From contig JBAZHE010000003.1 of the NCBI GenBank assembly GCA_041652555.1, forward strand, positions 4,096 through 68,095: a stretch of DNA of 64,000 bases, given 5' to 3'. The translations under genes and the position numbers were made by a program. This document shows, in pieces, positions 3,908-63,065 of this stretch (within the stretch, counting starts at the first letter, position 1; the number at the start of each line of letters is the position of its first letter). The DNA comes from Patescibacteria group bacterium. GTDB lineage: Bacteria; Patescibacteriota; Patescibacteriia; Patescibacteriales; WJLG01. Under the pieces are notes generated by a model. That model was not told the origin of the DNA, did not search any database, and saw only the letters and a list, made by a program, of their open reading frames with translations.

Positions 3908-4771
3908 ATGCCTCCTCCGAAAGATCCAAAAAAATACGACGAGTGGATAAGAAAAAACAGCGAAGCACATAAAAATAAACATCCGTCTGAAGAAACACGA
4001 AATAAATTAAAAGGAAGAAACCCGTGGAATAAAGGAATACCATTATCAGAAGAAGCAAAACAAAAATTGAGTGAATCTTGTAAAGGTAGAATCCCTTGGA
4101 ATAAAGGTGTCCCTCATAAACAAGAATCTAAAAATAAAATGAGCATAAAGAAAAAAGGTATCCCATTATCAGAAGAACATAAAAAACATTTATCCGAATC
4201 TCACAAAGGATTAAAGCCAAACGTGACTCCGGAATCTATAGAAAAAAATCGTATTGCTCATCTTGGTAAAAAGGCATCGGAAGAAACAAAAGAAAAGATG
4301 AGTATATCACATAAAGGAAAATCTTCGTGGAATAAAGGAATTAAAACTCCGATAGAAATTAGAAATAAAATGAGCAAATCGATGAAAGGAATAAAAAAGT
4401 CTGATGGATTTAGAAAAAATATGAGTGGTGAAAACAATCTTAACTGGAAAGGTGGTATTACAGAATTGGATAAAGCAATCCGTGCATTACCGGAAATGTT
4501 CGAGTGGAGAAGAAAAGTTTTTGAACGCGACCATTATAGAGATTGTTTTACAGGAAGTCTTGGAAATCACAATATCGAAGCGCATCATATTGTCGCGGTA
4601 TCTTTAATTATGGAAAGATTTAATATAACTTCGATAGAAGATGCTTTAAATTGTGAAGATATGTGGAATATAGATAACGGAGTAACAATGTTTAAAAATT
4701 CACATATTGAGCATCACAAAAAATACAAATTACAAATATTACCAAAAGAATATTATTTTAAAAACCAATAA
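3908..4771 (+). CDS. NUMOD3-repeat endonuclease paralog 3 with degenerate HNH
   Basis: About 8 copies of xSEExKxKxSxSxKGxxPWNKG; C-terminal IEAHH...DNGVTMFKNSHIEHH lacks the Zn-binding cysteines present in paralogs 1-2. Confidence 0.7.
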   Translation: MPPPKDPKKYDEWIRKNSEAHKNKHPSEETRNKLKGRNPWNKGIPLSEEAKQKLSESCKGRIPWNKGVPHKQESKNKMSIKKKGIPLSEEHKKHLSESHKGLKPNVTPESIEKNRIAHLGKKASEETKEKMSISHKGKSSWNKGIKTPIEIRNKMSKSMKGIKKSDGFRKNMSGENNLNWKGGITELDKAIRALPEMFEWRRKVFERDHYRDCFTGSLGNHNIEAHHIVAVSLIMERFNITSIEDALNCEDMWNIDNGVTMFKNSHIEHHKKYKLQILPKEYYFKNQ

Positions 4772-5764: not shown

Positions 5765-5844
5765 TAGGTCTGGCCGGAGTTGAACCGGCTTACACATAGA
5801 CCGTGTTTGAGACGGTTCCATAGCCGTTCTGGATACACAGACCC
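5765..5844 (-). tRNA. tRNA-Leu(CAA)-like, class II (long variable arm), irregular D region
   Basis: Hand fold on minus strand: acceptor GGGTCTG/CAGACCT (G1-U72), anticodon arm ACCGT-CTCAAAC-ACGGT, T arm GCCGG-TTCAACT-CCGGC; acceptor/D junction has extra nt. Confidence 0.6.
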
Positions 5845-5847
5845 AAA

Positions 5848-5929
5848 TGAGTGATGCCGGATGCGCGCCGGCGATGTTTCCTTGTACGGAGTCTAAATCC
5901 GGTGAAGTCGGCTTCTGTTCCAATCACTC
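5848..5929 (-). tRNA. tRNA-like gene, anticodon UAG (Leu), aberrant T and D loops
   Basis: Acceptor GAGTGAT/ATCACTC, anticodon loop TTTAGAC, long variable arm; T loop is CGCGCAT (no TTC) and D loop lacks GG. Confidence 0.4.
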
Positions 5930-5948
5930 TCGATTTCCCACAATGGGA

Positions 5949-6033
5949 TGCGTCCGTCAGGATTTGAACCTGAAATGTTTCGCTTCGTCACAGTGTTTAA
6001 GACTGTTGCGTTCAACCGTTTCGCCACGGACGC
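5949..6033 (-). tRNA. tRNA-Leu(UAA), class II
   Basis: Acceptor GCGTCCG/CGGACGC, D arm GCG-AAACGGTTGAA-CGC, anticodon arm ACAGT-CTTAAAC-ACTGT, T arm TCAGG-TTCAAAT-CCTGA. Confidence 0.85.
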
Positions 6034-6035
6034 GA

Positions 6036-6119
6036 TGTGTGAAGCAAGATTTGAACTTGCGTCGTTTCCTTGTCTGGAACCTCGATCCAGTGGAGTCAAC
6101 CGTGCTGTCCCATTCACAC
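6036..6119 (-). tRNA. tRNA-Leu(GAG), class II, C at position 33
   Basis: Acceptor GTGTGAA/TTCACAC, D arm GGA..TCC, anticodon arm CTGGA-TCGAGGT-TCCAG, T arm GCAAG-TTCAAAT-CTTGC. Confidence 0.7.
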
Positions 6120-6168
6120 ATAACTTATATGTTTTCAAATCATTTATACTTTCCCCTATGTAAGAGGA

Positions 6169-6253
6169 CGCCAACGACAGGAATTGAACCTGCAACCCTG
6201 TTAAGGGCGACGGTTTTCAGGACCGTTTAGCGCACCGCACTCCCCACGTTGGC
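6169..6253 (-). tRNA. tRNA-Ser(UGA)-like, class II, C33 and atypical D arm
   Basis: Acceptor GCCAACG/CGTTGGC, anticodon arm ACGGT-CCTGAAA-ACCGT, variable stem CCCT/AGGG, T arm GCAGG-TTCAATT-CCTGT. Confidence 0.55.
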
Positions 6254-6262
6254 AATAATATG

Positions 6263-6338
6263 AGCCGGATGAGAGAATTGAACTCCCGCCCTTTCGATTA
6301 CAGATCGAATGCACCAAACCAACAGATGCTTATCCGGC
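6263..6338 (-). tRNA. tRNA-Thr(UGU), class I, C at position 33
   Basis: Acceptor GCCGGAT/ATCCGGC, D arm GCAT..GTGC, anticodon arm TTCGA-TCTGTAA-TCGAA, T arm GGGAG-TTCAATT-CTCTC. Confidence 0.7.
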
Positions 6339-6340
6339 GA

Positions 6341-6428
6341 CGCTGCCTGAAAGATTTGAACTTTCGTTTCCGATCAGGAAAGCAACTTTAGCAGAATTGC
6401 GGCATAAACCAGACTCGCCCAAGGCAGC
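6341..6428 (-). tRNA. tRNA-Ser(GCU), class II
   Basis: Acceptor GCTGCCT/AGGCAGC, D arm GGC..GCC, anticodon arm CAATT-CTGCTAA-AGTTG, variable stem TTTCC/GGAAA, T arm GAAAG-TTCAAAT-CTTTC. Confidence 0.85.
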
Positions 6429-6580
6429 AAGATGAAACCAATACAAAACACCCTCACGATGTGGTGAGAAGCGTCAAACTGGACAGTAAACGCAATGATA
6501 GAATAGATGTTGATACGTTTATATTTACTGTCATGATATATAATAGTGTATGTTGTAATAGTATTTAAATATTTCTACAA

Positions 6581-6662
6581 TTGGTGGAGAGGGATTTGAA
6601 CCCTCGAAGCACTAAACACCGGATTTTGAATCCGGCCCCTTTGACCGCTCGGGTATCCACCA
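6581..6662 (-). tRNA. tRNA-Leu(CAA), class II, U1-A72
   Basis: Acceptor TGGTGGA/TCCACCA, D arm CCC-GAGCGGTCAAA-GGG, anticodon arm CCGGA-TTCAAAA-TCCGG, T arm GAGGG-TTCAAAT-CCCTC. Confidence 0.8.
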
Positions 6663-6792: not shown

Positions 6793-9700
6793 CTAAAAAC
6801 CCCACTTCCCCAACGTCGGAGTCGCCGGGTCAAACTCGCACCAGTTGAAATTCAACGGTTCCATAATCCGTGATAACGGAGTCTTTAAAGTCTTCTCTAA
6901 CATTGTATCAACATCAACTATAAAAATGTTTCTATCTATTTGATCCGCATACTCAAAACAAACTACATCCGTGCGCGGATATTTTGAAGTAACATTCTTA
7001 ATATATAAACGTTTCGGTTTTGACCCCTTACCAAAATTCGTTCCCAGATAAGTGTTAGAATACACCGCCGCGCGCACCTGCGCATCTTGGATATCATATT
7101 CTTCCAATGGTTTACCAATGCCGCCGGGAATTCCTACATCGTCGAGACTATATTTACCCGCGCGGTATTTACGTATAACATCCGAAATAGTAGTTCTGAT
7201 TTCTTCATAAGGTTTGCCCTCAAGAACCATCTCGATAAGTGTTTTCATTGCGTCACGTGTGACCTTGGGGGAATCCGACCGCTTGGTTTCAAAACCCACA
7301 ATATCAATTTTATGCGCGTCTACACCTTCCTTCCAAATAAGGAGTCCAGCGTATCGCTTCTTCTTCCCGCCGCTAAAAAATCTCTGGTATAATTTTTCAA
7401 ATTTCACGGAGAAATATTGAACATCGGCATTTAATGTTTCTTTTGCAAACTGTGGATATGAGTTATTAAGAAGCGTTTCAAGTTCCTTCGCAATAAACAT
7501 AGTTCCTTCTTTCCCAATACTTTTTGGTATCTTTATACCAACCGAATCGGTATCACCAAAAACAATTTTATATTCTTCGTGTTCTACAAGTTTTTTGTTG
7601 TGCTCCAAAAGCGCGCGCCCTACTGATGTAATAGCCGAACCCACGTCACGGTCATTAAGACGGAACATCGGATTTGCCGAAACCCCATAATAAGAATTCA
7701 TGCAAACCTTAACCACGTCCTGTTTCATATTTAAAAGTTTATACTCACGAGAATCAAAAGGATACTTATTCCGTTCCTTTTTCATCTCATCTCGTTCACG
7801 TAAAAATTTCGCCTGAATCTTTCTAACCAATCCATCGGGTTCTTTTTTAAATCTGACACCATTAGGAGCGCGCAGTTCTCCTTTTGGATCTTTGGTTTCT
7901 GGAGATGCATTAATAGTCATCATCGACATTGGATACAATGATTTAGCATCCAAAACAGCAACGTTTTCTTGCACTCCGCGCATGGGAGCAATAACCGTAG
8001 CCCCTTCAAACGATTCTTGTGTATTTATAGAATTTGCCTTTGAAGGTAAAATAAACCCATTTTCTTTTGCTTCTCTCAAAACCAACATATCAATAATAGG
8101 CATACTATTTGTTGTCTTTTCCAGAGGACACCCGGCATAATGAGCAACATACCTGTGGAATTCAACAGTTTCGTCTTTTGCATTAATACCTACACATAAT
8201 TCCACATCAGTGAAGTTATAGTAAACCAGATTGGTAGGATCTTCTTTCCATAAATCGAAAACCTTTCCATTGTGATGGATTTTTTGTTTCCCCAATTCTT
8301 CTAATGCTATTGCATCAAGGCGATAAGAAGGTTGTTCACCCAAATGCATTCTTTTATACCCGGATAATAAATCAAAAAGTTGACGACCTTTGATTTCTAT
8401 GCGCCCGGTGTTTCCACTAGGCAACCGCGACCACGCATCGCGCGGGATACCTAATACATCCATACGACCCAGAATGTAAGGTATATCAAATTCATTACAA
8501 TTATGTACAACGCAACCAATCGAAAAATTATGTTCTGTCGTTTCAATATCGTAGCAATTTTTAGGCACGTCGTTACTTACATTTTTTACCCGCAGATACA
8601 TATTAGTTAGATTTCTATTAAAATTAAATCTGAAATGATCTTTCCTAGTAACTCGTTTTCTCTTAATTATATGGATTTTATTTTTTATTTTCTTCTGCAA
8701 AAACTTTTTCATACACTCTAATAGTTTTTGGGTTATACATAAGATCCGTAAATTTATATTACATGTAGATGAAGTTATCGCACCAAATCCTGCAAATAAC
8801 TGAAAATGCCGAATATTAATAGTATGATCTCCTATACAAAAGACATCTGAATACCCATCGCCATCATACCATCCAGCTAAAAAAGCCCCGAACTCTTCTA
8901 CAGATAGACGAGATAATAAACCAAAATTGAGTTGTTTCTTATCACCAACCAGAATGAGATGTTCTGCCCCTTTTAGATCTCGCTGCAATATATTAGAACA
9001 CCAGACACCTTTTGTAAACCATCTATGGTTTTCCCCGCAACATCTATTAATGAGGTTTATATTTTTATTGTAAAATCTAAATCTCCACTTATCTGGTCTG
9101 GCGCCATCGGAATAAATAAGTCCAGCCCTGTAACAATTAAAAGGATCAAGCCCGAGACCAATATTATTTTCATACTGCCGTATTGGAATATGCAATATAC
9201 TATCAGAAGTTATATTTTTAGAAATTTCGTATGTTGGTTCATAGTTTTCGCAATGTTCCCACACATAATGACGATCTTGTGGAATTTGAGAAACTAACAT
9301 TCGATGATCTTCCCCAACAATAAAATCCCATCCAATAGATGTTCTTATACGAGTTGTATTCTTAACCCCCGTATTATAAACGGATACAACTTTTCCACCT
9401 GTGTTTAAAACAATACCCGGTATTAATGCCTTAATTGGTATAAGACCGTTTTTTGTGTCAACCATTGTATCTTCTGGAACGCAGTTCCACCCCGTAATAA
9501 TATCCGGATCTGTGGATTTGATATATTCACAAAAATCCACAAGAAGAGATTTTTCATCCGTGTATGTTATAACGTCGTGGTGAGCGGGATCAAAGCACCC
9601 GTTCTCTTTAGGTGTTTCTATAAGAGGTGAAGTAGCGACAACAAATGTAATATAACGATTTGTAAAACTATCATGACAAGTAATGCAAAAAATTGGATCT

Positions 9701-10164
9701 TTCGTTGCATCCGGGAACCCGCGTTCATCAGAACATTCAATATCCACAATACAAACGCGCGCGGGATAGTTTAAATCTTTGAATAATATGTCGTCAATCG
9801 TGCATGGTGATTGTGTATAAGAGAAACCAGATTTTATTTTTGTATCAATCAGAAACCTCAATGTGTATAAAATATCCGCTTCATAGTGTTTAGAAAACTT
9901 CTCGCGCGATTCAAAAATGTCACCGGGTTTTTGAGTAATGACTTTCACCAAAGGTTCATGGAGAATGGAAAAATATTCATTTGAATCAACTTCGGAGGGT
10001 GGTGTTGCTTTGGGGGATTCTGATGCGGGAACAAAAAAATAAGGTTTGAAACCAACCACATCCACACGATGAGAAACACCGGAGGAGTCACGACCGAAGA
10101 TGTTAATGACAGGAGAGTTGTTATGGAAGGAGTATTCGGCTTGAGTTAAGCAGAGATCAGGCAT
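6793..10164 (-). CDS. polB: family B DNA polymerase, intein-containing (795-aa extein + 328-aa intein)
   Basis: Exo I VDIECS, Exo II GWN/CNEFDIPY (split by intein), motif A DAKSLYPMSMM, motif B KVCMNSYYGV, motif C VFGDTDSV. Confidence 0.95.
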   Translation of the reverse strand: MPDLCLTQAEYSFHNNSPVINIFGRDSSGVSHRVDVVGFKPYFFVPASESPKATPPSEVDSNEYFSILHEPLVKVITQKPGDIFESREKFSKHYEADILYTLRFLIDTKIKSGFSYTQSPCTIDDILFKDLNYPARVCIVDIECSDERGFPDATKDPIFCITCHDSFTNRYITFVVATSPLIETPKENGCFDPAHHDVITYTDEKSLLVDFCEYIKSTDPDIITGWNCVPEDTMVDTKNGLIPIKALIPGIVLNTGGKVVSVYNTGVKNTTRIRTSIGWDFIVGEDHRMLVSQIPQDRHYVWEHCENYEPTYEISKNITSDSILHIPIRQYENNIGLGLDPFNCYRAGLIYSDGARPDKWRFRFYNKNINLINRCCGENHRWFTKGVWCSNILQRDLKGAEHLILVGDKKQLNFGLLSRLSVEEFGAFLAGWYDGDGYSDVFCIGDHTINIRHFQLFAGFGAITSSTCNINLRILCITQKLLECMKKFLQKKIKNKIHIIKRKRVTRKDHFRFNFNRNLTNMYLRVKNVSNDVPKNCYDIETTEHNFSIGCVVHNCNEFDIPYILGRMDVLGIPRDAWSRLPSGNTGRIEIKGRQLFDLLSGYKRMHLGEQPSYRLDAIALEELGKQKIHHNGKVFDLWKEDPTNLVYYNFTDVELCVGINAKDETVEFHRYVAHYAGCPLEKTTNSMPIIDMLVLREAKENGFILPSKANSINTQESFEGATVIAPMRGVQENVAVLDAKSLYPMSMMTINASPETKDPKGELRAPNGVRFKKEPDGLVRKIQAKFLRERDEMKKERNKYPFDSREYKLLNMKQDVVKVCMNSYYGVSANPMFRLNDRDVGSAITSVGRALLEHNKKLVEHEEYKIVFGDTDSVGIKIPKSIGKEGTMFIAKELETLLNNSYPQFAKETLNADVQYFSVKFEKLYQRFFSGGKKKRYAGLLIWKEGVDAHKIDIVGFETKRSDSPKVTRDAMKTLIEMVLEGKPYEEIRTTISDVIRKYRAGKYSLDDVGIPGGIGKPLEEYDIQDAQVRAAVYSNTYLGTNFGKGSKPKRLYIKNVTSKYPRTDVVCFEYADQIDRNIFIVDVDTMLEKTLKTPLSRIMEPLNFNWCEFDPATPTLGKWGF
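8500..9483 (-). mobile_element. intein with LAGLIDADG homing endonuclease in PolB (residues 228-555)
   Basis: Starts CVPEDTMVDTKNG, ends CVVHN followed by +1 Cys; two LAGLIDADG motifs (YRAGLIYSDGA, FLAGWYDGDGY); removal restores T4/RB69-like GWNxxxFDIPY. Confidence 0.9.
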
Positions 10165-16642: not shown

Positions 16643-17336
16643 ATGGAAACTTACGAAGATAAACTCATTAAAGAACGATATTGCGTCGATGGAGAAAATA
16701 GTTATCCCGATGTTTGTGAACGTGTAGCGCGATTCATTTCAAGCAACGACGAACAATATCATCAGTTCAAGAAAATTCTTGTAGATAAAGATTTTTTGCC
16801 CAACTCACCAACCCTGATGAATGCCGGAACTTCTAACCCCGCCTTGTCAGCGTGTTTCTTTTTGCCGGTAGAAGATACAATTGAAAGTATTTTTGATGCT
16901 AACAAAAATGCAGCAAAAATCTTCGCTCGTGGGGGCGGGGTCGGATTCAATTTCTCAAAACTCCGACCCGCTGGAAGCAAAGTTGGAAAACGCAACGGTG
17001 TTTCCTCCGGTGTGGTTTCATTTATGGAAGTTTTTAACACAATGACAGAGGTTGTCAAGCAAGGAGGCCGTCGCCGGGGAGCTATGATGGGATGCCTTGA
17101 TATTGCGCATCCAGAAATCAAAAACTTTGTGACATGTAAACAGACAGAAGGAAAACTCTCTAACTTTAATATCTCTGTCAAACTCACAGATGAATTCATG
17201 AAGAATCCCACACCCGAAATCATGAACTTGATTGTGAACGGAATTTACAATAACGGAGAGCCGGGAATTCTGTTCAAAGATACAATCGAAAAGTATAACC
17301 CGGCTCCCGAATATGGAGAACTCAATACAAATCCAT
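16643..17336 (+). CDS. nrdJ: class II (B12-dependent) ribonucleotide reductase, exon 1
   Basis: FLPNSPTLMNAG, LSACFFLPVEDT, GGGVGFNFSKLRPAGS, QGGRRRGAMM; exon ends ...NTNP + T (first base of the Cys codon). Confidence 0.9.
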
Positions 17337-17607
17337 TAAACTCCGTGTGGATTTAAAATCGCGTAAATTGCTGGAACACCCTTAAGCATCTCTAACTACA
17401 ACGCAATCAGAAATGATAAACGTGAACGTTTTAAAAATAGAAATGATTGGGCAATCAGCAGCCAAGCATCTTATCAATAAGATGAAGGTTCAGAGACTAT
17501 AGACGCGACATCGATGATATAGTCCGATCTCATATGAGAATATGAGAGTGTGACAGAAATGATCACACCTGCAACGAAGCATCGTTGCTGTAACAAAAAA
17601 CCTCTTG
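17337..17607 (+). ncRNA. group I self-splicing intron, 271 nt, no ORF
   Basis: P1: exon AATCCAT (17330-36) pairs with intron GTGGATT (17347-53), U-G wobble at the splice site; core CAGAGACTATA (17491-501) and GATATAGTCC (17516-25) with P7 GACTA/TAGTC; three 3' hairpins; terminal G 17607; splicing gives an in-frame TNPCGE. Confidence 0.85.
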
Positions 17608-19001
17608 GCGGGGAGGCTCTATTAGAATCATGGGGGAGCTGCAACTTGGGTAGCATCAACCTTTCCCACCACATAAAAGACAATGCAATTGACTACGACA
17701 AACTCAAAGCCACAATAGACACAGCGGTTATATTCCTCAATAATGTAATCGACAAAAACAAATACCCACTCCAAGAAATTGACTTTGCATCCAAGCGAAC
17801 GCGCAAGATCGGTCTCGGTGTTATGGGATTCCACGACGCGTTGATTAAAATGGGGATTCCTTATAATAGTCAGAAGGCACTTGATATTGCCGAAGAAATT
17901 ATGAAATTTATTAATGAGCGCGCACATGAAGTGTCAGAGTCATTGGGTAAGAATCCGAATATCAAACAGAACAGGTTAAATGCTTCATTGACTTCGATTG
18001 CACCAACGGGAACAATTAGTATTATTGCGGGTGCTTCATCAGGTATCGAACCCGCATTTAATTGGGTATATACGCGGCATGACACGTTGGGCGAACATTA
18101 TATTGTGCATCCGTTGTTTGAAGAAGCGTTGAAAAATCTAATGACTGATCTTAATGGCAAAGTAGGATTCTTCGTAACCGTGGATGGCGTAAAATATGAT
18201 ACGTTGGATGGAACGAGACAAGCCATTATTAGACACTGCCATGAAAAGGGGACGATTCGCGATATAGAATTTTTACCAGATTCTTTCAAACTCCTCTACC
18301 AAAACGCAATGGACATCCCTTCATCAATGCACGTAAAAATGCAGGCCACATTCCAAAAGAATGTGGATATGTCCATTTCAAAAACAATCAACCTTCCAAA
18401 CTCTGCTACTAAAGAAGAAATCAAACAGATCATTATTGACGCGTGGAAGAGTGGTTGTAAAGGTCTTACAATCTATCGCAATGGTAGCCGTGAGAATGAA
18501 GTGTTGGCACTTAAGAAACCCGTGGTTGTTGAAAGTATCGTAGATTGGATCGAAACTGAAAATGCTTTCTACGAATCCAAAACCCCCGCTGTAATTTACA
18601 AAGTCCATAGTGGATGCGGGAAATTCTATGTTATCATTGGCCACGACAAAGAGGAACCAACAATGATCTTTGTGGAAGGTGATGGTGTTGGTGGGTGTCA
18701 GGCAAATATGGCAGCAATGGGGCGTTCTATTTCGGCAGGATTGGAATGGGGGACACCAGCAGAGAACTATGTAAAACAATTCTCTAAAGTAAAGTGCATG
18801 ACGGCGATGCAGAACAAATTATCGTGTGGTAAATCGTGCGCGGATATTACAGGAAAATGTTTGGACGATGCGATAAAAATGTTAATGCCCAAAAGTATAA
18901 AGGTTGAAGCAACAGAAGAAAAATGTTGTGACGCGCCGCATTATGTGATGGAAGGCGGATGCAGGATTTGTACGAATTGTGGCAAAAGTAGGTGTTCGTG
19001 A
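17608..19001 (+). CDS. nrdJ: class II ribonucleotide reductase, exon 2
   Basis: Begins GC GGG GAG.. giving C-GEALLESWGSCNLGSINL; RKIGLGVMGFHDAL, TSIAPTGTIS, ISKTINLP; Cys-rich C-terminal tail; exons total 2088 nt = 695 aa. Confidence 0.9.
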
Positions 19002-21538: not shown

Positions 21539-21777
21539 TTAGAATAAAAATAATAGAAAATGCTGGAAATCATTTTGCTCAACGATTTTTAAAAAATTGT
21601 TTTGGTGGTGATGAAGCAGTAGCATACCTCGCATCCCAAAAAGCACATTGGCTTGAAAATCACGAAAGGGAAATTGGATTTCTCACTAAAGAATTCGGGG
21701 ATTTAAAAATATCGATTGGAGATGATTATGAGTTGTTTGATTCCGAATACACCGATTTATTTGAGGTTGTTGAATGA
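21535..21777 (+). CDS. hypothetical protein (80 aa)
   Basis: ORF track; ATGA overlaps at both ends. Confidence 0.5.
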   Translation: MIRIKIIENAGNHFAQRFLKNCFGGDEAVAYLASQKAHWLENHEREIGFLTKEFGDLKISIGDDYELFDSEYTDLFEVVE

Positions 21778-23330
21778 TTATCCAAGGCGACGCTTTAACA
21801 GTTTTGAAAAGGATGGATAGTGAGTCAGTGCATTGTGCGGTAACGTCAAGTCCATATTATGGATTGCGTTCGTACAATACCGAACCACAAATATGGGATG
21901 GAGATCCAAACTGCCAACATGAATGGGGGGAAGTTCATCCACCGGGATATAGATCATCTGATACAAAACCGGGTCCAATGCAACATGAAGGGAATACGCA
22001 CCGTGAGAATTTGCGAAGTGATATTTGTTCAAAGTGTGGAGCGTGGAAAGGTGAACTGGGACAAGAGCCTACACCTGAATTGTTTGTTAAACACCTAACA
22101 ACTATCTTTCATGAATTAAAAAGGATTTTAAGAAGCGACGGTGTTTTCTGGATGAATATTGGGGATAGTTATTGTGCTTCTAAATGCGGATCGTTCAACG
22201 GTGGATCAGATATTCTTAAAGGAAGAAATCTTGAAGGTCACTCTAAATCCGGGAATGTAGATAAGTCAAAACTTATGGGAATGAAACCCAAAGACCTTAT
22301 TGGTATCCCGTGGGCTTTAGCATTTTCTATGCGCTCCGATGGTGCCTCATCACCACAGACAATGTATACAGTAGAAAAAATCAAAACTTCGTTGCTTCGA
22401 GATTATGATACTTGGAATGACGTTCCAAAACATACTAAAAGAACAATTGAAGATTTGGATGAAGAGTGGTTAAAAGCAAGTAAGGGGGGTTGGTATCTCC
22501 GTTCTGATATTCCTTGGGTAAAAAGAAATTCACTTCCATCATCTGTAACAGATCGCCCCGGCTCTTCCATTGAACACATATTCTTATTCTCAAAATCACA
22601 GAAATATTACTATGACTACATAGCAACAATGCAACTTTCATCAGAATCTTACAACAAAGATAAAAGACCGCGCGGTGTTATTCGTCAATGCGTAAACACA
22701 AACTCCAAGTATCCAGATGGGGGGCAATTTAAAAAGCAAGATAACACAGGGAATGAAACTTACACAGGATTTAACGCTCGCTATGAACCTAATGGTTATG
22801 GCCTTCGTTACATGCGGGATTCCGATTTCTTCTTCAAGACATGGCAAGGACTTCTTCACAATGAAGATGGTGAACCAATGGCTCTTGTGGTAAATCCGAA
22901 ACCGTATAAAGGTTCACATTTTGCCGCATATCCGATAAGGCTTGTAGAACCCCTAATTCTCGCGGGAACATCAGAAAAAGGCGTTTGCCCACATTGTGGA
23001 GCGCCGTGGGTTAGAGTTGCGAAAAAAGAATCATATATAACTCGCCCCACCATTGGTTCTGATGATCAGAAGCAAAAACTCAATCCCGGTAATGCGCAGG
23101 GATTAGAACGCACTGGTGGTCATGTTGCTCAAATTACTGAAACCATAGATTGGCAACCATCTTGTAATTGCACAAATAACATACCAGTTCCCGCCACAAT
23201 TCTCGATCCCTTCTCCGGCTCATCAGCAACCGGTGTCGCTTGTAAACTCCATAATCGTGATTATATTGGTATAGAACTCAATCCTGAATATTGTGAACTT
23301 GGAAGAAAACGTATTCGTGAAGGCAAATAA
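21774..23330 (+). CDS. N4-cytosine / N6-adenine DNA methyltransferase (beta class), large insertion
   Basis: Motif IV VTSSPYYGLRSY near N-terminus, motif I ILDPFSGSSATGVA near C-terminus; no adjacent nuclease. Confidence 0.85.
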   Translation: MIIQGDALTVLKRMDSESVHCAVTSSPYYGLRSYNTEPQIWDGDPNCQHEWGEVHPPGYRSSDTKPGPMQHEGNTHRENLRSDICSKCGAWKGELGQEPTPELFVKHLTTIFHELKRILRSDGVFWMNIGDSYCASKCGSFNGGSDILKGRNLEGHSKSGNVDKSKLMGMKPKDLIGIPWALAFSMRSDGASSPQTMYTVEKIKTSLLRDYDTWNDVPKHTKRTIEDLDEEWLKASKGGWYLRSDIPWVKRNSLPSSVTDRPGSSIEHIFLFSKSQKYYYDYIATMQLSSESYNKDKRPRGVIRQCVNTNSKYPDGGQFKKQDNTGNETYTGFNARYEPNGYGLRYMRDSDFFFKTWQGLLHNEDGEPMALVVNPKPYKGSHFAAYPIRLVEPLILAGTSEKGVCPHCGAPWVRVAKKESYITRPTIGSDDQKQKLNPGNAQGLERTGGHVAQITETIDWQPSCNCTNNIPVPATILDPFSGSSATGVACKLHNRDYIGIELNPEYCELGRKRIREGK

Positions 23331-26958: not shown

Positions 26959-27143
26959 AAGATGGTTATAAATTAACAATATTTTTAAGTGTTATAGTAA
27001 TAATATTGGCAATATTTATACATGGCACAGTTATTCATTTAACACAAGTGGGTGAATTTCAAAAATGTGTAAATGCAACACTTTCTGATCCACTCTATTC
27101 CACATTTGCATGTGATAGACCGGGATGGTGGTTTGGAATATGA
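26955..27143 (+). CDS. small membrane protein (62 aa)
   Basis: ORF track; one TM helix; AAGGAGG RBS. Confidence 0.5.
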   Translation: MKDGYKLTIFLSVIVIILAIFIHGTVIHLTQVGEFQKCVNATLSDPLYSTFACDRPGWWFGI

Positions 27144-29617
27144 AAATCCTTTTTATCTTACCTAGATTTAATAAAGGTTTCGGAACTGTCTACAATGAAA
27201 ACGAAACCGGTATTGACTATGATTACTTAATGCCCGTGGGAATGCCCTACATCGCTTCTTATCTCAAACACAATGGATGTGATGTCTCGGCATTAAACCT
27301 TAATCACACACCCGGATTGGTTAAAAACATTGTACAAAAAACTATTACTGACACTCACTATGATTTCGTATTCACCGGCACAATTTCCATAATGTATCCC
27401 GCTGTGCGCGATATAATAAAATATGTACACGAAGCATCTCCCAATACAATAACCGTCTGTGGTGGAGGTATCATTTCGTCTAACCCCGAACTAATGATGA
27501 AACTTATTAATCCACATTACGGGATTATTTTTGAGGGTGAAGAAACAGCATTAGAGTTGATACAAACTATTGAGAAGGGGCAATCTGTGGAAAATGTTAA
27601 AGGTATTATTTATTCAACAACATGGCCTATTCCAACGTTTACTAAAACACAACCACGCCCCCAAATCAAAAACCTAGATGCACTCCCGTTTCCCGATCTT
27701 GAACTATTCGGTTATTCCGAATACTTGAAACACCAAGAACTTGGCGGTTGGAATCAATATCCACGAGATTATCCACCGCGCCCGTATATGTTGGTTTCAG
27801 CGCGCGGTTGTTCGGCAAATTGTTTATCAGGAGACACTTTAATTGCAACCACAAATGGCAACATTAAAATAAAAGATCTCGTTGGGCAGACCCCAAAAGT
27901 TCTTACACGAGATCCAATTACAAAAGATGTATTATATGCACAGTCCTCAATAGTTGCTAAAACCGGAGAAAATAAAAATCTCGTTAGAGTTTCATTTAAA
28001 GAGGGGGGATATATTGACTGTACACCAGATCACAAATTTGTAAAATTTTTAAACTCAAACCAATATGTCCCGTTGAGAGAGTATGAAACGGAAGCACAAT
28101 TTTTGAGACCCGGTGATAGTGTTCGTGCTGTTCATTATAAATTGAGCACCACTGGTTACACGATTATAATATGGGGAAGGAAAAAGCATCGATATCAGCA
28201 CACTTTAATAATGGAATCTATGATTGGAAGGAAACTCTCACAATACGAAAGGGTTCATCACAATGATCATAATCAAATAAATAATGTTGAAAAAAATTTA
28301 ACACTTACCGACAATCATAAACATATCCCAACTTACCATCCAGAACTATCACAACGTATGAAAGATAATAATCCCGCAAAAAATCTACCACACGAATTTT
28401 TTGTGCAACGCGGAAAAGAACAACGTGGTAAAGTTCGCTCTATAGAATCCAGAATGAATTATAAAGCATCCAAAACGGGGAATAAAAATCCGATGTGGAA
28501 AGGTGGTTGTGGAAGAACAACAAAATCCCGTATACCCGGGCAACCAGATGTAAATCACGTAGTTAAAAGCGTTGAACCACTAGATGGGTTACATAATACG
28601 TATTGTTTAGAAGTGCCGGGATATAATTGGTTCTATGCCAACGACGTTCTTGTTCATAATTGCACATTTTGCTACCACACAACCGGCCCAAAATACCGCT
28701 ACCGTTCCGCAGAAAATATAATGTCAGAAATCAAATACGTTGTTGAAAAATACCACATTAACTTCTTCACATTTCTTGACGAATTGTTTTCATACGATAA
28801 AGCGCGCGCACTTGAATTCTGCCGACAATTTAAAGAATATCAGAAAACCATTCCGTGGCGAATTGAAATGTATTGCAATCTGCGCGTTGATTGCGCGGAC
28901 GCAGAACTTCTTGATGCCATGAAATCCTGTGGGAATGTAGTTATCGGATTAGGTCTCGAAAGTTACAACCAAAAAGTTCTCGATTCAATGCGAAAACACA
29001 TAACACCCGCGCAGATTGAAACCACGCTTGGAATGATCGCAGAAAGAAATCTTGTTCCGCAAGGGGGGTTCATCTTTGGAGATAATGCAGAAACACTTTC
29101 CACCGCACGCACTACTTTACAATTCATTCGAGAACACCCACATCTTTCACGAGGTGGTTTATTTATGGGCTTTATTATTCCGTTTCCCGGGACCGCTATT
29201 TATAAACATGCTTTACAAAATGGAATCATAAAAGATGAAATAGAATTTATTAATAAATTGACAAGCACGGATTATAATTATGATAACGTATGTAATCTCA
29301 CAAATTTATCAGATGAAGATTTTGACACGTTGAAAAATGAAGTGTTCACTTTAAAATACACAGCAATTCCCGTATCTGTTCCAACAAAAATAACCAATGA
29401 TGAAATCTTTGTAAAATGCCCCCATTGTGGGAAGATGCAAACTTATAAAACAACTAAACGACCACATGCGCAATTCAGCGTGGGGGTAATTTGTAATAAC
29501 CCCGAATGTAATGGAAGATTTGAAATGGGCACACGATATATTCAATTGGGGAGACTCGCTGTAAAGTTATTGGGATTTAAAAGAATGCGACGGATTAAAA
29601 ATTGGATGGGGATTTGA
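27140..29617 (+). CDS. B12-binding-domain radical SAM enzyme, intein-containing
   Basis: N-terminal Rossmann-like B12 domain (KILFILP.., VCGGG), radical SAM motif C-SAN-[intein]-C-TF-C, C-terminal Cys-rich zinc ribbon; ATGA start at 27140. Confidence 0.8.
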   Translation: MKILFILPRFNKGFGTVYNENETGIDYDYLMPVGMPYIASYLKHNGCDVSALNLNHTPGLVKNIVQKTITDTHYDFVFTGTISIMYPAVRDIIKYVHEASPNTITVCGGGIISSNPELMMKLINPHYGIIFEGEETALELIQTIEKGQSVENVKGIIYSTTWPIPTFTKTQPRPQIKNLDALPFPDLELFGYSEYLKHQELGGWNQYPRDYPPRPYMLVSARGCSANCLSGDTLIATTNGNIKIKDLVGQTPKVLTRDPITKDVLYAQSSIVAKTGENKNLVRVSFKEGGYIDCTPDHKFVKFLNSNQYVPLREYETEAQFLRPGDSVRAVHYKLSTTGYTIIIWGRKKHRYQHTLIMESMIGRKLSQYERVHHNDHNQINNVEKNLTLTDNHKHIPTYHPELSQRMKDNNPAKNLPHEFFVQRGKEQRGKVRSIESRMNYKASKTGNKNPMWKGGCGRTTKSRIPGQPDVNHVVKSVEPLDGLHNTYCLEVPGYNWFYANDVLVHNCTFCYHTTGPKYRYRSAENIMSEIKYVVEKYHINFFTFLDELFSYDKARALEFCRQFKEYQKTIPWRIEMYCNLRVDCADAELLDAMKSCGNVVIGLGLESYNQKVLDSMRKHITPAQIETTLGMIAERNLVPQGGFIFGDNAETLSTARTTLQFIREHPHLSRGGLFMGFIIPFPGTAIYKHALQNGIIKDEIEFINKLTSTDYNYDNVCNLTNLSDEDFDTLKNEVFTLKYTAIPVSVPTKITNDEIFVKCPHCGKMQTYKTTKRPHAQFSVGVICNNPECNGRFEMGTRYIQLGRLAVKLLGFKRMRRIKNWMGI
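27821..28660 (+). mobile_element. intein with HNH endonuclease domain (280 aa) inside the radical SAM CxxxCxxC motif
   Basis: Starts CLSGDTLIATTNG, block B TPDHKF, ends NDVLVHN + Cys; internal HRYQH..VHHNDHNQINN..NL..H HNH signature. Confidence 0.85.
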
Positions 29618-31196: not shown

Positions 31197-31345
31197 AAAC
31201 GAACTACGATATATATTTCCAAGTTTACAACACATCATCTAAAAAATGGGTGAAATATGATAGAACACAGGGGAGAGTCGTGGATATCAAAGACGATGGC
31301 GAACCGTATGAAAATATACAGATATATAATGAGGGGATAAAATGA
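31193..31345 (+). CDS. small hypothetical protein (50 aa)
   Basis: Not in track; ATGA overlaps at both ends. Confidence 0.4.
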   Translation: MKTNYDIYFQVYNTSSKKWVKYDRTQGRVVDIKDDGEPYENIQIYNEGIK

Positions 31346-32142
31346 TCCTACCACCCTCCTACTTCGAGATCACAACCAAAATCGGTTGCTCAATCAACTG
31401 CCTAAAATATTGTCCACAGGAAACGATTATTAAAAATTACAAAGGTAATCCTTTAATGACACTTGACCAGTTCAAAAACTTTATGAAAACGGTTCCACAA
31501 AATCTACCCATTTTCTTTTCTGGTCTATGCGAACCATTCCTTAATCCACAGACAACAGATATGATTATGTGGGCACATCACAAAGGACACCCCATTTCTA
31601 TATTTAGCACACTAACCGGATTGACACCAACTAATGCTTGTAGGTTAATTGATATTCCCATCGACAAATTTGTCCTTCACCTCCCCGACGCTTATGGTAA
31701 TGCCAAAATCCCACAAACACAAGATTACTTTGAAGCACGCTCCATTATTGAAATGAATGTTAAGCATCTCGAATATATGAACATGGGGTGGGGGTTTATT
31801 TCCAATAAGTGCGAGGATATGGCGCGCGGTCGGGCCGAATTAAAAAAAGGGCGTAGACTTTGCAACTTCCTAGAATCACCTGCTTATCAACTCCTGCCCA
31901 ATGGCAACGTGTTCTTTTGTTGTATGGTGCGCGGGTTGACGGAGAAGGTTGGGTCGTTGTATGAGAATACATATCTAGAGTTGGCAGCGCGACATGGAAA
32001 GATCTCTGATAGATTGCAGAAAGACCAAAATTCTATTTGTCATTATTGTAATGTGTCGGAGAAATATTGGTTGAGGAGAGCGATACAAAAGAAGAATGAG
32101 TTGTTGAAGGGTAAGACGATTATGCAGGTGTTGGGGGTTTGA
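31342..32142 (+). CDS. radical SAM protein
   Basis: N-terminal GCSINCLKYC (CxxxCxxC); C-terminal Cys pairs (FFCC, CHYC). Confidence 0.7.
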   Translation: MILPPSYFEITTKIGCSINCLKYCPQETIIKNYKGNPLMTLDQFKNFMKTVPQNLPIFFSGLCEPFLNPQTTDMIMWAHHKGHPISIFSTLTGLTPTNACRLIDIPIDKFVLHLPDAYGNAKIPQTQDYFEARSIIEMNVKHLEYMNMGWGFISNKCEDMARGRAELKKGRRLCNFLESPAYQLLPNGNVFFCCMVRGLTEKVGSLYENTYLELAARHGKISDRLQKDQNSICHYCNVSEKYWLRRAIQKKNELLKGKTIMQVLGV

Positions 32143-39286: not shown

Positions 39287-40168
39287 TTACCACCCCCACA
39301 TATCATGATATGCTTTATGAGAATTCTTCAACATGGTGATTCCATTATTTATATCCCATAATTCTTCGCATGATTCTGCTTCTTCCAAAGTCGTTATATT
39401 ATATTTTTCTATTATTGTATGGAAAGGTATTATATGGTGTGCTTGAATAGGGTTTTTGCGTGTTCCTTTGCATCCGCTGAACCAATCTCGGTAATTATCT
39501 CTGGCAAATATAGAAAGAATCCATTTTCTCATTTTTGTGCAATGTCTAATTTGATTATTTAATGATGTGACACCATCCTTCCATTGATATGCATTTTCAC
39601 CACGTCTTATATATCTTAAATTTAAACATTTATCCTCTGACCATTTTTTCCCGATTCGAAATTTGCGACTGCATTCATCAGAACAAAATTTCCCCCTTTC
39701 GTGATCAACTTTGTATTGTGTGGTTTCAAATTCTTTCCCACATTGCTGACAAACACGATTTATACGTTTTCTTCTGGCAATCGATTTACATCCAACCGAG
39801 CAATATTTCCCACCACCCCTAACAATATAAGATGTCCACACTTCAAATTCTTTTCCGAATGTCAAGCATTTACATTTTATTTTACTTCTATTTCCGATAT
39901 ATGCACACTCACGAGAACAATATTGCGGGTGTTGATATGGATATTTTACTTCGAATACAATTCCACATTGTTTACAAATACGCAAAACATCACGGATTTT
40001 TGATTCCGTTGGATGTAATATTTTATTTCTTTCCCTCCCATATTCACTTTGGCAATCTTTACACCACATTTGCAATCCATCTTTTCTACTTTTTTCTCTC
40101 CTAAACTTCGTTAACGGCAATCCCCTCTTACACCGACTACAAACCTTTGTTTTAATTTCTTCTTCCAT
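39287..40168 (-). CDS. zinc-ribbon-rich endonuclease paralog with degenerate HNH
   Basis: Several CxxC..CxxC ribbons; C-terminus QWKDGVTSLNNQIR..IQAHHIIPF..DINNGITMLKNSHKAYH aligns with the 2480-4771 paralogs. Confidence 0.65.
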   Translation of the reverse strand: MEEEIKTKVCSRCKRGLPLTKFRREKSRKDGLQMWCKDCQSEYGRERNKILHPTESKIRDVLRICKQCGIVFEVKYPYQHPQYCSRECAYIGNRSKIKCKCLTFGKEFEVWTSYIVRGGGKYCSVGCKSIARRKRINRVCQQCGKEFETTQYKVDHERGKFCSDECSRKFRIGKKWSEDKCLNLRYIRRGENAYQWKDGVTSLNNQIRHCTKMRKWILSIFARDNYRDWFSGCKGTRKNPIQAHHIIPFHTIIEKYNITTLEEAESCEELWDINNGITMLKNSHKAYHDMWGW

Positions 40169-45856: not shown

Positions 45857-46960
45857 TCATTTCCCCGACTTCGTTCTATTATGGTGCATACAAAGCATCT
45901 GACAATTATCTTCTACCGATTTTCCACCTTTTACCCACGGAACAATATGATCCGCTTCCATCTCTTCAAACTCATAATGTTTAGAGGGATCACATATAGG
46001 GCATATACCTTTTTGTCTTTCATATACTTTTGTTGTGATTTTTTCATCAAAGGTTCGTAAGTTTAAAGACGACTGATCTTTTTCTCCACTCAACAGGAAT
46101 TTATAAATACCTTTTTTATTTCCCACTTCATCGTCATCCATAAGTTCTTTGATGCGATCTTCCATAATAGAGGGGGTGTATTTAAAATCCTTATATTTAT
46201 TATAGAATATACCCCATTCTAACCCTTTCATTTCTTTTCTATAATTTGAAAATATTGCTTTCACCCAATTAATAACCCCTTGGAAATATAACCACATTTC
46301 ATTGGCATTAGTATCATGCTGGTGGATTGACATATAGTCTTCTATCCCAATACCGTCTCTTTCAGAAATCCATTTTATAGCGGTTTCCAAATAATCTTGT
46401 CTTATAGACGAACCCACCAAATATTTACTTGCAATATCGTGAGCAGGGCACATATTTTTTGAAAAATATTTTTTAGCGTCAGAAAGCCACTCTCCCGTAT
46501 AAGTGGCATTCCGCAATTCTTGATCAGTGAGTTTGATACCTGCTATATTTATAATTTTAAACCAATCTAACTTCTCCTTATCATTGCCTTGACAAATATA
46601 AATCATCAATTTATAATTTAATATTTGTTCCTTTTCCACATCTGTGAGATTGTGAAAAAACATACAATCTACTGAAAAATCACCATTAATATATTGGCAA
46701 ATACTCACTGTTCTTTGCTGACCATCAAGCAATTCATATGTGCCATTATTATTAACTACCCAATACATAATATTTAATGGGAACCCTTTAACAATTGTTT
46801 TAATAACTTCGTTTCTTTGATTAACATTATAAACAAATTCTCTTTGAAATGGTGGGCGAATATTTAGTTTACCATTATATCCAAATGCCCCATTTTCAAC
46901 ATCATCCACATATCCTTCTGATATTTCTTTAATAGGTATTTCTTTTAGTATTATTTTCAT
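45857..46960 (-). CDS. DUF262 (ParB-like NTPase) - HNH nuclease fusion
   Basis: N-terminal PPFQREFVYN and LLDGQQR; C-terminal CPICD..EADHIVPWVKGG..NCQMLCMHHNRTK. Confidence 0.8.
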   Translation of the reverse strand: MKIILKEIPIKEISEGYVDDVENGAFGYNGKLNIRPPFQREFVYNVNQRNEVIKTIVKGFPLNIMYWVVNNNGTYELLDGQQRTVSICQYINGDFSVDCMFFHNLTDVEKEQILNYKLMIYICQGNDKEKLDWFKIINIAGIKLTDQELRNATYTGEWLSDAKKYFSKNMCPAHDIASKYLVGSSIRQDYLETAIKWISERDGIGIEDYMSIHQHDTNANEMWLYFQGVINWVKAIFSNYRKEMKGLEWGIFYNKYKDFKYTPSIMEDRIKELMDDDEVGNKKGIYKFLLSGEKDQSSLNLRTFDEKITTKVYERQKGICPICDPSKHYEFEEMEADHIVPWVKGGKSVEDNCQMLCMHHNRTKSGK

Positions 46961-55652: not shown

Positions 55653-55725
55653 GTTCGCATAGCACAATTGGTAGTGCGTCGGGATTGCAATCCGAAGGTT
55701 GGGGGTTCAACTCCCCCTGCGAACT
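55653..55725 (+). tRNA. tRNA-Ala(UGC)-type (anticodon call only; no G3-U70)
   Basis: Acceptor GTTCGCA/TGCGAAC, D arm GCAC-AATTGGTA-GTGC, anticodon arm TCGGG-ATTGCAA-TCCGA, T arm GGGGG-TTCAACT-CCCCC; flanks extend the acceptor helix by 3 bp (gga/tcc). Confidence 0.8.
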
Positions 55726-55766
55726 CCTTCATCTTGTGTTCCGCATACACATGAAACCTGCGGTGG

Positions 55767-62977: not shown

Positions 62978-63054
62978 GGGCCTGTAGCTCAGTCCGGTTA
63001 GAGCGCCCGGCTCATAACCGGGAGATTTCATCGGTTCAAATCCGATCTGGCCCA
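62978..63054 (+). tRNA. tRNA with CAU anticodon (Met or Ile2)
   Basis: GGGCCTG-TA-GCTC-AGTCCGGTTA-GAGC-G-CCCGG-CTCATAA-CCGGG-AGATTTC-ATCGG-TTCAAAT-CCGAT-CTGGCCC-A; one U-U mismatch in the acceptor, 7-nt variable loop. Confidence 0.75.
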
Positions 63055-63065
63055 CTAATCGAAAC

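Follow-up and report, generated by a model that had tools for sequence, protein, structure and literature searches.

A predicted class 1 intein with a nested HNH endonuclease in the cluster motif of a phage radical SAM gene, and its family

The radical SAM gene and its insert

We analyzed a stretch of 64,000 nucleotides from contig JBAZHE010000003.1 (assembly GCA_041652555.1, filed under Patescibacteria), hereafter the window, in which a gene for a B12-binding radical SAM protein is interrupted by an in-frame insert of 840 nt (27821-28660, + strand; 280 aa) predicted to be a class 1 intein with a nested HNH endonuclease. The longest open reading frame (ORF) of this host gene extends unbroken over 27125-29617 (+ strand, 830 aa). 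Since all homologues begin at MKILFILP, which is found here at the sixth codon (Met6, 27140), the gene probably starts at 27140. The N-extein (27140-27820, + strand) comprises the B12-binding domain and the start of the radical SAM core and ends in RGC(229)SAN; Cys229, the first cysteine of the CxxxCxxC motif, is encoded at 27809-27811 (+ strand) as read from the DNA. The C-extein (28661-29617, + strand) comprises the rest of the radical SAM barrel and aligns with intein-free homologues. It opens with Cys+1 (28661-28663, + strand), the second cluster ligand, followed by T, F and, from the DNA reading, the third ligand Cys+4 (28670-28672, + strand), and it terminates in a CxxC...CxxxxC zinc-ribbon-like tail.

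Three Pfam families matched the precursor above their gathering cut-offs: the B12-binding domain (PF02310; residues 35-145, 49 bits), Intein_splicing (PF14890; residues 246-512, 45-48.6 bits) and Radical_SAM (PF04055; residues 511-668, 53 bits). The NCBIfam models for the N- and C-terminal parts of inteins matched as well (TIGR01445 at residues 233-306 and TIGR01443 at residues 492-513). In the 550-aa sequence left upon deletion of the insert, PF02310 scored 49.9 bits and Radical_SAM 61.7 bits, the profile span of the latter being extended from 9-166 to 3-166. The host has the features of class B enzymes, namely an N-terminal B12-binding domain and a radical SAM core, with the motif CSANCTFC once the insert is deleted. 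On this architecture it is an uncharacterised class B radical SAM enzyme, lying within a phage glycosyltransferase cluster. The NCBIfam class B radical SAM equivalogs (HpnJ, PhpK, BchE and others) all scored far under their cut-offs, the best being HpnJ at 110 bits versus 578, so that none of their functions could be assigned to the host; modification of a glycan or sugar would be a guess from the gene context.

The limits of the insert are set by its Cys1 codon TGT (27821-27823) and its terminal Asn codon AAT (28658-28660), in exact agreement with the coordinates and the length of 280 aa proposed in an earlier note on this DNA. The junctions read SARGCSAN / CLSGDTLIATT...NDVLVHN / CTFCYHTTG, and intein blocks A, B, F and G, which that note had left to be verified by alignment, were all found. 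The N-terminal splicing region (27821-28075, + strand) holds block A (C1-LSGDT) and block B (IDC-T68-PD-H71-KF). In the family alignment (A4), C1, G4, D5 and T6 of block A are invariant, the TxxH of block B is T68-P-D-H71 within IDCTPDHKF, and the residues of both blocks are invariant or nearly so. The C-terminal splicing region (28553-28660, + strand) holds block F (NTY-C262-LEVPGYNWFYAN) and block G (DVLV-H279-N280); TIGR01443 covers intein residues 260-280, and W270, F271, A273, N274 and N280 are invariant. The intein closes on a C-terminal His-Asn pair (VLVH279-N280) with Cys+1 directly behind it. The window copy keeps every family-invariant residue, including C1, T68, H71, H279, N280, C+1 and the HNH histidines. 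As the earlier note had read it, the intein lies between the first and second cysteines of the CxxxCxxC motif of a B12-binding radical SAM protein (RGC-SAN/intein/C-TF-C), and the +1 nucleophile (VLVHN, then C at 28661-28663) is itself the second motif cysteine.

A profile of the family compared with the PDB matched the RadA, DnaB and NrdJ-1 inteins over residues 2-89. An AlphaFold2 model of the intein, built from a 15-sequence family alignment, reached a mean predicted local distance difference test score (pLDDT) of 87.3 and a predicted template modeling score (pTM) of 0.74. In a Foldseek comparison with the PDB, the best matches of this model were the Ssp and Npu DnaB mini-inteins (E 1e-7 to 6e-7, target TM-score 0.76-0.83), followed by the VMA, GyrA, RecA, RadA and NrdJ-1 inteins. 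A HINT fold is confidently predicted for the insert from these comparisons. Position 4 of block F is Cys (TYC262LEV) in at least 90% of the family, the usual residue being Asp. This cysteine brought a class 3 intein into consideration, a reading dismissed since the insert has Cys1 and, apart from the block F Cys, lacks the WCT signature (Phe at B:12 and Val at G:5). By all computational criteria, both of sequence and of modeled structure, the insert is a canonical class 1 intein.

Nested in the HINT domain lies the endonuclease insert (28148-28480, + strand), which comprises an HNH_3-type core and then helical NUMOD3-like DNA-binding repeats (RM..NNP and GK.RS.ESR..Y..SK.G.KNP). In the central ~150 residues of the intein, the pattern E-x2-HH-x-D-x4-N-x4-NL-x12-H is invariant across the family and is present in the window as E143, H146-H147, D149, N154, N159-L160 and H173, of the beta-beta-alpha-metal type. 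The AlphaFold2 model has two strands (143-147 and 160-164) and then a helix (168-172), in the strand-strand-helix order expected. HNH_3 (PF13392) matched 47 of 65 family members, the aligned region scoring 38 bits in P0122 and 25.2 bits in P0121; NUMOD3 matched three of the 65, and the family profile gave a weak match to I-HmuI (1u3e, E=0.047). The predicted nuclease is accepted as HNH-type and not LAGLIDADG, as the earlier note had proposed, on the strength of these homologue matches and of the conserved residues (HH-D-N-NL-H, kept in the window copy), not of the Pfam score of the window copy. No further copy of the intein was found in the window, where a phmmer comparison with all six-frame ORFs of at least 80 aa returned only the intein itself.

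Intein-free relatives and the wider family

A homology search with the 550-aa insert-deleted sequence recovered 615 homologues. The nine closest intein-free ones (P0002-P0010, 542-558 aa) are 81-88% identical to it over 99% of its length and read through the junction without a gap, as in GCLAACTFCFHTTG and GCNFSCSFCFHTTG; in the protein alignment, the insert forms a clean 280-column block between GC-x-x-x and C-x-F-C. The absence of the insert from these homologues, together with the Pfam and NCBIfam intein models and the HINT fold, upholds the earlier identification of an intein, and the flanks align to a radical SAM core after its deletion, at the 61.7 bits given above and gaplessly with all nine. 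Two of the homologues bear the insert: P0001 (825 aa), which is essentially the same precursor on an independent JGI contig and stands for 5 member sequences, and P0013 (823 aa, 73-75% extein identity). The sole extein difference between the window and P0001 is Tyr517 (28673-28675), right after the CxxxCxxC motif (CTFCY versus CTFCD); the intein-free homologues have Phe at this position.

The polymorphism is also seen in the DNA. The window is collinear, at 72-85% nucleotide identity, with the intein-free contigs L001 (NCBI GCA_041890195.1) and L003/L004 (JGI), with which it shares the gene order ribonucleotide reductase (RNR), small ORFs, glycosyltransferases GT2, GT4 and GT4, a 214-aa ORF, the radical SAM gene, GT2 and helicase. 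The nucleotide alignment of the radical SAM gene ends at 27810 and restarts at 28667/28676. The presence/absence polymorphism is exact, the segment being missing in the syntenic relatives and the host motif being restored upon its deletion.

When 1.84 billion representatives of 50%-identity clusters were searched exhaustively with the intein (phmmer), 2108 matches were returned, 89 of them at E<=1e-30 and 265 at E<=1e-10, and junctions were parsed for the best 151 of the 2108. The same junction as in the window (GCxxx / C...N / CxxC) was observed in 109 of these 151; the N-junction was visible in 97 of them, mostly with both junctions, and 12 showed only the C-junction on a truncated contig. 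Neighboring positions in the same 8-residue motif accounted for five more: before the first motif cysteine (P0197), after the second with Ser+1 (P0161 and P0214), and before the third (P0225 and P0254). Each of the three cluster cysteines is thus the +1 nucleophile in some member, with Ser+1 in the members that follow the second cysteine. The remainder comprised the classic class II RNR site GxxMG.../C.HPD (14/151) and other hosts (23/151). Among 65 representatives searched with Pfam, Radical_SAM was matched in 62 and a B12-binding domain also in 58.

A pattern scan of IMG/VR identified 27 viral contigs with the intein, 25 of them with the standard junction GCxxx/C...N/CxxC; in L039/L040, from the same database, the site is the same and Pro replaces Cys1. 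The GTDB representative genomes gave three close loci only, all on contigs of metagenome-assembled genomes (MAGs). The remaining seven GTDB matches were six RNR inteins of Acidobacteria, including Pyrinomonadaceae (L008-L013), and a partial match in a Promethearchaeota MAG (L014). One of the three close loci, on a GTDB MAG contig of 'Candidatus Paceibacterota' (L005, JBAZFF010000003.1), has a counterpart in IMG/VR: this contig and a viral genome (L023, IMGVR_UViG_3300037067_021817) are both 46,482 bp long, with identical match coordinates and junctions, and appear to be one contig filed both as a bacterial MAG and as a viral genome. In a tblastn search of cultured phage genomes (INPHARED), the family intein was found in no radical SAM gene; the only matches were weak and partial, to inteins unrelated to it, to HNH genes and to a single B12 radical SAM gene without an intein. 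The source names seen for members of the family are generic (YgiQ-family radical SAM superfamily enzyme, anaerobic magnesium-protoporphyrin IX monomethyl ester cyclase, 'hypothetical protein', 'radical SAM protein'), and an intein is mentioned in none of them. Public data thus contain many copies of the allele, most of them viral and practically without a label. The suggestion of the earlier note that the site was unusual does not hold, given the 109 identical and five adjacent junctions among the 151 closest relatives and the 27 IMG/VR contigs; because the same allele is common, its claim of novelty fails.

The metagenomic and viral family (P0126-P0229 and others; L015-L041) shares with the window intein the junction, the HINT, HNH_3 and NUMOD3-like architecture and 40-66% intein identity. 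Its hosts are mostly B12-binding radical SAM proteins, paralogues that are ~28% identical to the window extein. When intein and extein identities to the window protein were compared over 66 full-length hosts, the intein was the more similar in 65 (medians 45% versus 28%), the sole exception being the orthologue P0013 (intein 63%, extein 73%). This excess of intein similarity over host similarity indicates that the intein has spread laterally among paralogues, and the hosts, as judged from these identities, are paralogous radical SAM genes with one common intein lineage. In the 'spliced' DNA of 26 occupied sites, conservation was limited to ~25 bp around the junction (GG.TGcCC.TAtaa/TGc...TTcTG), the coding DNA for G-C-P-(Y/F)-x/C-x-F-C, which is plausibly the target of the nuclease. 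Inteins usually occupy the most conserved motifs of their hosts. The cluster motif would be an ideal landing site, since the invariant cysteines always supply a +1 nucleophile and the coding DNA varies little among paralogues. The family appears to be large, mostly phage-borne and directed at the DNA of the radical SAM cluster motif G-C-P-x-x/C-x-F-C.

Next-closest by sequence are the inteins of class II RNR (GxxMG.../C...HN/C.HPD), which are classic and well described; they share ~30-36% identity and a similar length and similar termini with the window intein and differ from it in host and target site. The nested nuclease resembles the I-HmuI and HNH_3-NUMOD3 homing endonucleases of phages in having an HNH beta-beta-alpha-metal motif and then NUMOD3-like helices; those of the I-HmuI type are free-standing or intron-encoded, whereas the one in the window is nested in a HINT domain. 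HNH inteins are already known. Inteins in radical SAM enzymes are known as well, and MoaA, the host of an intein in Pyrococcus abyssi (Pab), is such an enzyme. A curated NCBIfam model, NF038136 ('intein-containing Rv2578c family radical SAM protein'), likewise combines radical SAM and intein. Its local match to the window protein (residues 225-340 to model 65-183) starts eight residues before the intein and is compatible with a similar junction; however, at 18.2 bits versus a cut-off of 700 the window protein is not a member, and Rv2578c hosts are not B12-binding. With the Pab MoaA intein (PMC3922620, PMC10663303) and NF038136 as precedents, novelty of a radical SAM host, as implied in the earlier note, cannot be claimed. 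In the literature searched on inteins together with radical SAM, B12 or Fe-S, we found no description of an intein in the CxxxCxxC motif or of the present family. The family-level pattern, one intein lineage across paralogous radical SAM genes with each cluster cysteine serving as +1 nucleophile, may be undescribed in that literature.

Some members depart from the common form. P0188 (1269 aa, an NCBI metagenome protein) carries, at residues ~194-884, two inteins four residues apart in the motif, laid out as ...YRN / intein-1 ...GILVHN / CPFS / CLSGDT... intein-2 ...VLVHN / CSYC, so that the middle extein is CPFS only. In L039/L040, P0215, P0227 and P0201, some copies have Pro or Ser at Cys1 (GCPYN/PLRGDT, /SLAGDT) and some have Ser, Lys, Ala or Arg at the penultimate His. 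For the Pro1 variants, class-3-like splicing via the block F Cys may be a possibility.

Selfish homing and its alternatives

In all likelihood, the insert is a canonical class 1 intein with an HNH_3-type homing endonuclease and acts as a mobile element of the selfish kind. As for the DNA, cleavage of intein-free radical SAM alleles by the HNH nuclease at the conserved sequence, probably during co-infection, would be followed by recombinational repair that copies the intein gene into the cut allele. Such homing has indirect support from the presence/absence polymorphism, from inteins that are more similar than their hosts and from the conserved DNA of the occupied sites. At the protein level, Cys1 would undergo an N-S acyl shift, the N-extein would be passed to Cys+1, Asn280 would cyclise, and an S-N shift would restore CSANCTFC, the intact [4Fe-4S]/SAM motif. 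The intein is real, probably active, and selfish; we infer its splicing activity, its nuclease activity and its current mobility.

Several points weigh against this reading. The Cys at position 4 of block F stands where Asp is usual, and it may affect splicing. The endonuclease segment of the window copy gave no match to Pfam HNH_3, even at E<=10. The GC content of the intein (0.36) is close to that of the host gene (0.38-0.40), so the invasion need not be recent. Lastly, a selfish origin may leave room for a secondary regulatory role.

The best-placed alternative is a conditional post-translational switch: under oxidising or cluster-limited conditions the precursor would be trapped, through a disulfide or through metal or Fe-S ligation by Cys-4, Cys1, Cys+1 and Cys+4, and splicing would take place only under reducing, anaerobic conditions in which the O2-labile radical SAM cluster can persist. 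The presence of four cysteines at the splice junctions is in keeping with it, and the host enzyme would be inactive before splicing, to judge from a 31-kDa insert inside the cluster loop. Precedents exist as well. Two reviews describe a Cys-3/Cys1 disulfide in the Pab MoaA intein that stops splicing until it is reduced, and a Cys1/Cys+1 disulfide formed by the Pab PolII intein (PMC3922620, PMC10663303). The reviews present the MoaA redox trap as a protection for an oxygen-labile enzyme (PMC3922620, PMC10663303). On this account, the Pab MoaA intein is a published model of the redox-controlled splicing that the earlier note proposed for the window intein, and the two are alike in lying in an oxygen-sensitive enzyme with an extein cysteine few residues upstream of Cys1.

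The likeness has limits. According to the reviews, and by extrapolation from them for the exact MoaA junction, the trap there involves Cys-3 and Cys1 (CxxC), whereas in the window the extein cysteine is at -4 (C-S-A-N-C1, CxxxC). The window intein thus lacks the MoaA-type Cys-3, which P0225 and P0254, inserted before the third motif cysteine, do have. The MoaA host is archaeal and the window host is a phage class B enzyme. The likeness does not imply close kinship of the two inteins. Against a switch, moreover, near-identical syntenic phage genomes occur without the intein, which argues that it is dispensable for regulation. Members of the family are also found at four positions of the motif, some with Pro or Ser for Cys1 and some with another penultimate residue, which suggests opportunistic insertion and not a tuned sensor. 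With 31 kDa placed within its cluster loop, the unspliced precursor almost certainly has no function; a regulatory role of the intein does not follow from that alone. HINT domains hold the two splice junctions side by side. Since the four cysteines may therefore be close, the proposal of the earlier note that the precursor is unable to bind its cluster is not established. Overall, we regard a conditional switch as improbable, and the data can be explained without one. It is likewise unlikely, to about the same degree, that Cys-4, Cys1, Cys+1 and Cys+4, three of them future [4Fe-4S] ligands, gate maturation by redox state or cluster supply and that the family has been retained partly for this.

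A second alternative is that the insert is a decayed remnant that no longer splices, the gene being effectively a pseudogene, or that it is kept as a permanent domain of the mature protein. Splicing is only predicted, the block F Cys is non-canonical, and the window copy falls beneath the Pfam HNH_3 reporting threshold. However, all family-invariant residues are kept in the window copy, the frame is intact over 830 codons, and the exteins, in which every core motif is preserved, share 81-88% identity with intein-free homologues. We consider decay or permanent retention very unlikely. An assembly chimera or sequencing artefact, for which nothing but the metagenomic origin of the data would speak, is practically negligible, because the same precursor is encoded on the independent JGI contig of P0001 and P0013 is an orthologous precursor. 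In addition, the junctions are canonical, the insert keeps the reading frame exactly, and over 100 other cases were found.

Read as a selfish class 1 intein, the locus alone is of small significance, being one more such element in a phage genome that has free-standing HNH genes and a group I intron as well. Its mechanism is ordinary, and the family-wide picture adds modest value. The family would be a clear case of a homing element that exploits a superfamily-wide catalytic motif, moving between paralogues which have little in common apart from ~25 bp of motif-coding DNA, and taking essential cluster cysteines as its splice nucleophiles. Automated annotation ('radical SAM protein', 'YgiQ family') masks many intein-bearing radical SAM genes. 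Redox or metal control of splicing beside an Fe-S site could be studied on natural examples from the family, and its compact HNH inteins with Cys+1 junctions could be of interest to protein engineers.

Genomic setting

The window, with ~37% GC, resembles a fragment of a tailed-phage genome. Its genes include a family B DNA polymerase, a primase-polymerase, helicases, Cas4-like and Sak4-like recombination genes, a tail-protein-like ORF and DNA methylases, and a glycosyltransferase block surrounds the radical SAM gene. Other elements of a mobile type were observed. A group I intron (17327-17546, + strand; Rfam RF00028, 67 bits, full-length model match, no internal ORF) splits the RNR gene (16643-19001) into ORFs 16643-17356 and 17550-19001; the RNR is intact, at 682-698 aa, in the syntenic relatives L001 and L003. 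Free-standing nuclease-like ORFs lie at 39287-40168 (- strand; HNH/endonuclease VII-like, beside a helicase), 45857-46960 (- strand; GmrSD_N and HNH) and 3908-4771 (+ strand; homing-endonuclease-like). The coming and going of the intein between close relatives fits this phage setting rich in mobile elements.

A second, small radical-SAM-like ORF (31342-32142, + strand) lies in the same glycosyltransferase cluster; it has CSINCLKYC near its N-terminus, gave no PHROG match and is conserved in the relatives. The family B DNA polymerase (6793-10164, - strand; 1123 aa) contains ~330 residues that match nothing between its exonuclease (92-227) and polymerase (from ~554) domains. An intein was considered in this apparently interrupted gene and rejected, no intein Pfam model matching it. 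An N6/N4 DNA methylase (21774-23330, + strand; 518 aa) likewise appears interrupted, with its Pfam match in two stretches, and here too an intein was rejected, as no intein Pfam model matched. The version of this methylase in L003/L004 has 400 aa and 36% identity, a difference that suggests gene replacement or insertion. Nine tRNA genes were found (5765-6662, - strand; 55653-55727; 62978-63055), seven of which, for Leu (four), Ser (two) and Thr, are clustered beside the DNA polymerase.

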